Source: Escherichia coli
GTDB taxonomy: Bacteria; Pseudomonadota; Gammaproteobacteria; Enterobacterales; Enterobacteriaceae
DNA length: 64,000 nucleotides
Direction: 5' to 3' (one strand)
Assembly (NCBI RefSeq): GCF_003018255.1
Contig: NZ_CP027440.1
Shown here: piece after piece, positions 11,237 through 11,702 of the stretch
How positions within the stretch are numbered: the first letter of the stretch is position 1
Layout: the number at the start of each line of letters is the position of its first letter
Translations under genes and position numbers: made by a program
The notes under the pieces: generated by a model
Seen by the model: only the letters and a program-made list of their open reading frames with translations
What the model was told of the DNA's origin: nothing
The model's database searches: none

Positions 11237-11416
11237 ATGACTTTTATTCATCAGGTGATGCTGTACTTCTGTACGGCAGTCTGTGTGCTGTATCTCCTTT
11301 CGGGTGGATACCGGGCCATGCGTGACTTCTGGCGCAGACAGATTGACAAAAGGGCCGCTGAGAAAATCAGCGCCAGTCAGTCAGCCGGAAGCAAACCCGA
11401 AGAGCCGCTCATTTAG
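11237..11416 (+). CDS. small single-pass membrane protein (59 aa), not in the supplied ORF track
   Basis: MTFIHQVMLYFCTAVCVLYLLSGG.. one hydrophobic helix then a basic/acidic tail; ends at a hairpin GCCGCT-CATTT-AGCGGC; weak RBS. Confidence 0.3.
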   Translation: MTFIHQVMLYFCTAVCVLYLLSGGYRAMRDFWRRQIDKRAAEKISASQSAGSKPEEPLI

Positions 11417-11456
11417 CGGCAACTTTCTTAATCACACCTTTCGACGAGAAAATCCC

Positions 11457-11702
11457 ATGTCAGAAATTACATCCCTGGTCACTGCTGAAGCAGTGAAGGA
11501 CGTCCTGCGCTCTGAAGAAGTCCTGAGCGCACTGAAACAGAAACTGCGCCATAAGCTGGAAGCGCGTCTTGATGCAGAAGTGGATGCCATTCTGGATGAA
11601 CTGCTGGGCGCACCGGCAGCTCCGGAGCCGGAAGGCATCGCGGGTGAGGGGAGTGCTTCAGATAGCGGTGACCCCACACCTGACAGCGACATGATGATGT
11701 AA
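11457..11702 (+). CDS. hypothetical acidic protein
   Basis: 81 aa from internal ATG of ORF 11283..11702; predicted helical, acidic C-terminus; immediately upstream of holin. Confidence 0.35.

Follow-up and report, generated by a model that had tools for sequence, protein, structure and literature searches.

DUF1378 and DUF826, two small late genes of lambdoid prophages in Escherichia coli, as candidate auxiliary lysis factors

Two small open reading frames (ORFs) lie between the esterase gene nanS-p and the holin gene S in a 64 000 nt stretch of Escherichia coli DNA (contig NZ_CP027440.1 of assembly GCF_003018255.1), which is called the window here, and both are real late genes of a lambdoid prophage resembling the Shiga toxin (Stx) phages. 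The first encodes a 59 aa protein of the family DUF1378 and the second an 81 aa protein of the family DUF826 (Table 1). Taken as a whole, the DUF1378 family belongs to lysis cassettes, and DUF1378 is probably a helper of phage lysis that has so far gone uncharacterised. We propose that the two proteins, encoded among the late prophage genes, are auxiliary lysis factors that help at the inner-membrane step, a proposal for and against which the balance is about even.

Family membership and annotation

Membership of both Pfam families was judged by a hidden Markov model match above the gathering score of 25 bits. The 59 aa protein matched DUF1378 (PF07125) with 130.1 bits (E 3.2e-38), residues 1–59 aligning to profile positions 1–59, and the 81 aa protein matched DUF826 (PF05696) with 128.7 bits (E 9.1e-38), residues 1–75 aligning to profile positions 1–75. 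They also matched phrog_494 (E 1e-39) and phrog_311, respectively, and scans of the pair against NCBIfam and PADLOC gave no match. An earlier reading of this DNA, made from the letters alone and referred to here as the sequence-only reading, had placed ORFs of 59 and 81 aa between nanS-p and S, where they are indeed found, and had described the smaller as unannotated. That description has to be withdrawn, as both proteins belong to Pfam families and are named by RefSeq (WP_000142780.1 and WP_001290206.1, in a 100 % identical prophage of E. coli OkiPb01697), and the equivalents in prophage Sp5 of E. coli O157:H7 Sakai are ECs_1210 (DUF1378) and ECs_1211 (DUF826).

The names DUF1378 and DUF826 were present under every E. 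coli match spanning the pair among the matches listed, which represent hundreds of genomes. The 701 bp region was found in 1944 of 5426 complete E. coli genomes, at a median of two and a maximum of 10 places per genome. Both genes are catalogued DUFs and in that sense ordinary, occurring in roughly one in three complete E. coli genomes and often in multiple copies. A 2023 paper on the Q–S region of Stx2a phages named DUF1378 and DUF826 in passing, without a function.

Two further ORFs were considered and rejected. A 139 aa ORF with a GTG start (11283–11702) is an overcall in which part of DUF1378, read out of frame, is fused to DUF826. The same overcall was found in the RefSeq record of phage 933W, where it is a 447 nt coding sequence for 148 aa (ST933Wp43, bases 4184–4630 of locus L001), and again as phrog_8301; DUF1378 is without annotation in the 933W record. 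A 41 aa ORF that runs over the nanS-p stop codon (11099–11224) was not accepted as a gene because indels in 933W change its frame.

Both reading frames are under purifying selection

Selection was examined using 24 unique DNA alleles of DUF1378 and 44 of DUF826, drawn from 83 loci. The in-frame ratio of nonsynonymous to synonymous substitution rates (dN/dS) was 0.12 for DUF1378, 0.15 for codons 1–50 of DUF826 and 0.46 for the DUF826 tail, with a value of 0.08 for the holin gene S as a control, and in the two shifted frames it was 2.2–4.3. The variable sites at codon positions 1, 2 and 3 numbered 9, 6 and 24 in DUF1378 (p = 8e-4) and 15, 7 and 33 in codons 1–50 of DUF826 (p = 6e-5). Intact copies were present in 83 of 83 related loci for DUF1378 and in 80 of 81 for DUF826, while three of 73 holin copies were disrupted. 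DUF1378 and DUF826 are under frame-specific purifying selection. Synonymous and nonsynonymous changes at equal rates, the pattern that the sequence-only reading had offered as the sign that these ORFs are not genes, were not what was seen.

The idea that the ORFs are spurious or decaying and without function, which their small size and weak Shine–Dalgarno (SD) sequences might suggest, is extremely improbable and is effectively refuted by the conservation analysis, given dN/dS values of 0.12–0.15 that are confined to one frame, the excess of third-position changes, the near-universal presence of intact copies and the existence of homologues in other genera down to approximately 30 % identity.

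The duplex energies with the anti-SD sequence were −3.1 kcal/mol for DUF1378 and −3.0 kcal/mol for DUF826, and the weak ribosome-binding sites that the sequence-only reading had pointed out at both starts were thereby confirmed. The corresponding values for nanS-p, S and R were −10.3, −7.4 and +0.6 kcal/mol. As the endolysin gene R, a real gene, scores +0.6, a weak SD is no argument against translation. A 14-codon upstream ORF, the stop codon of which overlaps the start codon of DUF1378 (Table 1), was present in 27 of 35 unique upstream contexts, and all 27 had a weak SD (26 at −3.1 to −3.5 kcal/mol and one at −6.0 kcal/mol). In the eight contexts without it, the SD was at −6.0 to −10.7 kcal/mol. 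This suggests that the ATGA overlap likely serves as a translational coupling that offsets the weak SD, and the upstream ORF would, judging from these sequences, itself be translated.

DUF1378 relatives are found in lysis cassettes

A profile search over 1.84 billion representative proteins, begun from a tblastn match in a recorded Stenotrophomonas phage, recovered 36 relatives of DUF1378, and those that could be named were from Klebsiella/Raoultella, Pantoea, Erwinia, Mangrovibacter, Pseudocitrobacter and E. coli. A profile search of genome contigs, made with one alignment, found three loci, which were in Enterobacterales only. In each of the 25 loci inspected outside the E. coli block described below, DUF1378 is the last gene of the lysis cassette, located right after the spanin gene or genes or the endolysin gene. 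The DUF1378 start overlaps the stop of the preceding gene in at least 13 of the 25; an ATGA overlap with the spanin stop is the usual arrangement, which suggests that DUF1378 is co-translated with the spanin gene. The holins of these distant cassettes are of the P21 pinholin type, the lambda S type (Phage_holin_3_1) or a third type with two transmembrane segments, and the endolysins include both signal-anchor-release (SAR) and soluble types. The nanS-p gene was found in none of the 25 loci.

At two loci (L099 and L100), a true DUF826 gene (Pfam E 2.6e-15) is found right after DUF1378, at the end of a lambda-S-type cassette and without nanS-p. Because the pair is present in these loci, it is older than the nanS-p block. 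When a distant DUF826 was used to query the phage collection, no match was found.

The possibility that DUF1378 is the sole holin of the Stenotrophomonas phage BUCT709 (L129, GenBank accession number OM816835) was examined and rejected, as an ORF for an S21-type pinholin (23436–23651, minus strand) is found just upstream of the lysozyme gene. This ORF is unannotated in the record, where an ORF on the opposite strand is annotated instead. The DUF1378 protein of BUCT709 is one residue away from a representative sequence that clusters with proteins of Klebsiella pneumoniae, among others, so that the recorded host looks odd. In several cassettes with DUF1378, a gene for a small protein with two hydrophobic segments, DUF7940, was found between the endolysin and spanin genes (L098, 4186–4449; L099, 4271–4477; L131, 6185–6463), and DUF7940 is a further uncharacterised candidate lysis-cassette gene.

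The block in E. coli phages

The order nanS-p, DUF1378, DUF826, S, variable insert, R was found in all 80 of the closest viral loci and likewise in the most divergent E. coli clade (approximately 57–66 % identity). Sakai Sp5 (ECs1210/ECs1211) and the L0106 region of 933W contain the same families in the identical order nanS-p, DUF1378, DUF826, S, R. They differ from the window in carrying a 90 aa allele of DUF826 with a different acidic tail, rather than the 81 aa allele. Because nanS-p, DUF1378, DUF826 and S have been inherited as one block, adjacency to S says little in the window.

In the phage collection, a P21-type S was found in 436 records, nanS-p in 352, DUF1378 in 309 and DUF826 in 306. 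The counts for DUF1378 and DUF826 were near-identical in each organism class, and the two are strictly paired in prophages of E. coli and Shigella. Phage cdtI has S without the pair, with a methyltransferase gene followed directly by S, and Stx1_699 has nanS-p and S without the pair and, in its place, an unrelated 447 bp spacer with no conserved ORF. A Mu-like phage that has nanS-p, DUF1378 and DUF826 sits in some Stx phages (L097, 1812–6289, and L123). Its nanS-p-like esterase has a different N-terminal domain, and in L097 the trio is preceded by a gin-like invertase gene and followed by a C5 cytosine methyltransferase gene.

Predicted features of the two proteins

The DUF1378 protein has a single hydrophobic segment (residues 3–24, Kyte–Doolittle 1.93) that is preceded by only two residues and terminates in a conserved SGGY. 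The 35 aa tail includes eight K/R and five D/E residues, seven and three of which, respectively, are in its first 20 residues. The AlphaFold2 (AF2) model is one helix covering residues 2–49, with a mean predicted local distance difference test (pLDDT) score of 72. From its sequence, DUF1378 is predicted to be a single-pass inner-membrane protein oriented N-out/C-in with the basic tail in the cytoplasm, and the seven K/R residues after the transmembrane segment fit the positive-inside rule. The part beyond the membrane is predicted to form a basic amphipathic cytoplasmic helix followed by a short disordered end. The relatives are 45–91 aa long and share the N-terminal transmembrane segment and a conserved L..GG[YW]..[IM]R motif at the membrane interface, while their tails are variable and rich in Ala, Glu and Lys.

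Other assignments for DUF1378 were considered and rejected. It is not an o-spanin (Rz1/LysC), as it has no lipobox, many homologues are free of cysteine (for example P0249, P0228 and P0246) and a separate LysC/Rz1 is present in the cassettes. It is not a holin, as it matches no holin family and every cassette examined already includes a holin candidate. The long tails of the 80–91 aa DUF1378 proteins are not a fused DUF826 (hhalign probability 0.3 %).

The DUF826 protein has a net charge of −11, and its AF2 model consists of a short helix (residues 10–17), a long amphipathic helix (residues 20–51, pLDDT 78–89) and a disordered tail. The sequence-only reading had described one hydrophobic helix with a charged tail for the 59 aa protein and an acidic helical 81 aa protein, and both descriptions agree with what was found here. 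DUF826 would, on this model, be soluble and acidic, its long helix leading into a disordered tail that is acidic, rich in proline and terminated by MMM. In the window (11610–11702) and in the homologues, the tail differs from copy to copy, with a length of 81 to 101 aa and a changing sequence, and is always in frame, acidic and proline-rich. E. coli-type and Mu-like copies have a hydrophobic [MT]M[ML] at the tip of the tail, which hints at a signal for docking or degradation.

Surroundings of the pair

The features found in and around the lysis region of the window are listed in Table 1.

Table 1. Features of the nanS-p to spanin region in the window
Feature	Position	Strand	Evidence and remarks
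nanS-p, sialate O-acetylesterase, 654 aa (DUF1737 + SASA + DUF6645)	9138..11102	+	Pfam; upstream neighbour in all E. coli-type loci (80+)
Hairpin directly 3′ of the nanS-p stop, after a run of seven A (from 11104)	11111..11139		RNAfold, −17.5 kcal/mol
Upstream ORF, 14 codons (MKTVLIVNNNGKKL)	11196..11240	+	TGA stop overlaps the DUF1378 ATG as ATGA
DUF1378 gene, 59 aa	11237..11416	+	ATG start; PF07125, phrog_494; dN/dS, hydropathy, charge, AF2
DUF826 gene, 81 aa	11457..11702	+	ATG start; PF05696, phrog_311; dN/dS, charge, AF2
Intrinsic-terminator-like hairpin and T-run between DUF826 and S	11712..11747	+	Terminator scan; −19.1 kcal/mol
Stem-loop (6 bp) over the GGGAG SD of the first S start	11756..11772	+	RNAfold of related spacers; window sequence
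S, P21-type class II holin (pinholin), 71 aa	11780..11995	+	Pfam Phage_holin_2_1, E 7e-33
R, lysozyme-family endolysin (MNTKIKYGLSAAVLALIAAGAPAP)	13302..13835	+	Pfam Phage_lysozyme
Rz-like inner-membrane spanin	15042..15500 (start inferred)	+	N-terminal transmembrane segment; similarity in related loci
Rz1-like lipoprotein ORF embedded in the Rz-like gene	15253–15459	+	LVVSAC lipobox

The hairpin that follows nanS-p is terminator-like on the minus strand only and shows compensatory changes across four aligned divergent spacers. A hairpin was found at the position of the terminator-like hairpin ahead of S in all 29 unique spacers, with several different stems and compensatory changes, and likewise in L095, L096 and L105, and it is present also in phages without DUF1378 and DUF826. 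It would halt transcripts not modified by Q ahead of the holin gene. The stem-loop over the SD of the first S start may have a regulatory role, by analogy with dual-start holin genes. The second start of S is at 11789 (MYQMEK..., an M1/M4 dual-start motif), and the three-residue extension MYQ is without a basic residue. In Stx1_699, ATA is found in place of the first ATG of S, and the 68 aa form alone is therefore possible.

The interval between S and R (11999–13240) contains a 263 aa ORF, the N-terminus of which is DUF1327/YdfR-like, and a convergent minus-strand ORF of 233 aa that had no match in Pfam, PHROGs, NCBIfam or PADLOC. Its make-up differs widely across 80 related loci, suggesting a cargo hot-spot within the lysis cassette. 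The N-terminal segment of R is weakly hydrophobic (residues 9–27), as is typical of SAR endolysins, with K4 and K6 in the short cytoplasmic N-terminus. No second copy of DUF1378 was found after the Rz-like spanin gene of the window.

A scan of 10900–12100 found no sigma-70-like promoter, though a simple scan of this kind could miss weak or unusual promoters. With respect to the possession of a promoter and a terminator of its own, by which a moron is recognised, the pair has a terminator-like site downstream and the simple scan gave no sigma-70-like promoter. Expression of nanS-p increases by 1–2.4 logs upon treatment with mitomycin C, as measured by quantitative PCR (PMC10462455), and, as it is situated between this induced gene and S, the pair would belong to the Q-dependent late transcript. 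A transcript of ECs1211 that varied with growth phase was detected by microarray in uninduced Sakai (PMC2241611), and this signal is weak evidence of some expression in the lysogen.

Comparison with known auxiliary lysis factors

The releasin of phage Mu, gp25 (DUF2730), is required for release of the SAR endolysin and is an N-out/C-in protein of 99 aa with an N-terminal transmembrane segment, almost no periplasmic part and an anionic cytoplasmic domain. Its gene comes a few genes after that of the endolysin, and members of its family accompany endolysins of the SAR as well as the soluble type (Chamblee et al. 2022, PMC9239132). The members of the DUF1378 family are likewise small, have an N-terminal transmembrane segment, a predicted N-out/C-in orientation and a minimal periplasmic part, and are found with both types of endolysin. 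A location a few genes downstream of the endolysin gene is seen in 25 of 25 distant DUF1378 loci, and the window gene is upstream of S and R. The window DUF1378 differs from gp25 in its length of 59 aa and its basic tail, and any anionic part would have to come from the separate DUF826. Mu is without a holin, whereas a holin is present in every DUF1378 cassette examined. The GG..(W/Y)..MR sequences of the two families look alike by eye, but hhalign and a DUF2730 scan gave no sign of homology between DUF1378 and the releasin, and membership of the releasin family was rejected.

A second comparison is with Lcc6 (SO_4795) of the Shewanella phage LambdaSo, which has 65 aa, a transmembrane segment at residues 5–22 and approximately 43 cytoplasmic residues. 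In this phage with a pinholin and a SAR endolysin, Lcc6 is essential at the holin level and harmless alone. Its gene differs from that of the window DUF1378 in being remote from the lysis genes and close to xis and int (Thonebohn et al., bioRxiv 10.1101/2024.01.23.576932). The window DUF1378, as likened to it by description, has 59 aa, a transmembrane segment at residues 3–24 and a 35 aa tail, and accompanies a P21-type S and a SAR-like R. No Shewanella protein was among the named matches of the DUF1378 profile search. Lcc6 is probably at most an analogue of DUF1378, and both gp25 and Lcc6 are analogies rather than families to which DUF1378 belongs.

Proposed role

In the proposed mechanism, DUF1378 would insert N-out/C-in, with the L..GG[YW]..[IM]R motif and the basic amphipathic helix facing the cytoplasm at the inner membrane, and would act as an auxiliary factor at the triggering of the holin or the release of the endolysin; it would neither form holes nor serve as a spanin or as an antiholin for one particular holin. 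DUF826 would most likely be its cytoplasmic partner, docking onto the basic tail, and the two together would rebuild the layout of the Mu releasin, namely a membrane anchor and an anionic cytoplasmic domain. As the holins and endolysins that accompany DUF1378 are unrelated, it more probably acts at a generic step, for instance when the holin is triggered, the membrane is energised or a membrane-tethered endolysin is set free, than as an antiholin specific to one holin. As to whether the effect would be to speed or to delay lysis, we lean, by analogy with Lcc6 and the releasin, towards a helper or tuning role. In principle lysis could do without the pair, as there are other phages in which P21-type holins work in its absence. 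The sequence-only reading had suggested an antiholin-like or lysis-timing function; the part of this that assigns a lysis role to the 59 aa protein gains from the 25 distant loci, while the antiholin part is not supported and the argument from adjacency to S carries little weight.

A number of points weigh against this proposal. In E. coli, the link of the pair to nanS-p is no looser than its link to S, and in the window it is upstream of S rather than after the spanin gene, with a terminator-like hairpin in between. In the Mu-like phage, the trio is at the right end and no holin gene adjoins it. Unrelated cargo genes are also known to occupy the end of lysis cassettes. Most of the distant DUF1378 loci lack DUF826, and the two thus do not always go together. 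The close pairing of DUF826 with DUF1378 is the sole evidence that links DUF826 to lysis, and an interaction between the two proteins is proposed only from this pairing and the complementarity of their charges. The comparison with the releasin is weakened by the DUF1378 tail being basic where the cytoplasmic domain of gp25 is anionic. An hhalign comparison of DUF1378 (19 sequences) with gp25 relatives (17 sequences) gave a probability of 0.3 % (E 0.2, 12 columns), and none of the 19 DUF1378 members had a DUF2730 match at E ≤ 5. Finally, a literature search for DUF1378 and DUF826 found passing mentions in two papers and no experimental data on either family.

In a rival reading, the pair would be cargo linked to nanS-p in a permissive insertion site, with a role outside lysis, such as in the lysogen, in NanS-p biology or as a superinfection-exclusion moron. 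In all E. coli cases the pair is directly downstream of nanS-p, the phage counts in each class are nested (DUF1378 ≤ nanS-p ≤ S), and the trio of the Mu-like phage, the terminator between the pair and S and the growth-phase-dependent ECs1211 transcript in uninduced Sakai (PMC2241611) are all consistent with cargo. However, nanS-p is not found near the distant DUF1378 genes, which are start/stop-coupled to spanin genes, unlike independent morons. The failure to find a sigma-70-like promoter between nanS-p and S and the lack of a match in PADLOC also count against a cargo role, and we regard it as rather unlikely.

A role for DUF1378 as an antiholin or timer that binds S and delays triggering, with DUF826 perhaps acting from the cytoplasm in the manner of T4 RI/RIII, is in our view unlikely. 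Small holin-associated timers include the dual-start products lambda S107 and S21-71 as well as T4 RI/RIII. The dual-start antiholins are isoforms of the holin, while T4 divides the task between a protein tethered to the membrane and a small cytoplasmic one, an arrangement in two parts that resembles DUF1378 with DUF826. The position of the pair directly upstream of S in the late operon and the association of the DUF1378 family with lysis cassettes favour such a role, and the terminator before S would allow the pair to be made from transcripts that stop short of S, as for a safety catch. The MYQ extension of S, compared with that of S21, lacks a basic residue, and the antiholin form intrinsic to S may therefore be weak. 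Nevertheless, S has its own dual-start motif (M1/M4), and scans of Pfam, PHROGs and NCBIfam found no similarity to a holin or antiholin family, the only matches being to the two DUFs and to PHROG families of unknown function. Classical antiholins differ from DUF1378 in this lack of any sequence relationship that could be found, and the presence of DUF1378 with three unrelated holin classes argues against binding to a specific holin. In addition, P21-type holins are found without the pair in approximately 130 phage records (436 versus 306).

Implications

Auxiliary lysis factors at the inner-membrane step remain our preferred role for the pair. A link between the DUF1378 family and lysis cassettes was not found in the searchable literature, and the context across the whole family is what makes DUF1378 a new and testable candidate for a fifth lysis gene. 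A wider claim, which we put forward tentatively and consider somewhat less probable than its opposite, is that DUF1378, together with DUF826 where it is present, is a third independent family of auxiliary inner-membrane lysis proteins beside the releasin and Lcc6, one that is widespread in the lambdoid prophages of Enterobacterales and controls the timing, or even the occurrence, of holin triggering and of the release of SAR endolysins. The authors of the LambdaSo study ask about Lcc6-like factors in other lambda-like phages (bioRxiv 10.1101/2024.01.23.576932), and DUF1378 is a concrete and widespread candidate. Toxin release in Stx phages needs lysis, and a timing factor would therefore alter both toxin output and phage burst. 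If the proposal is correct, DUF1378 would influence the timing of Stx-phage lysis and, with it, the release of Shiga toxin and NanS-p.

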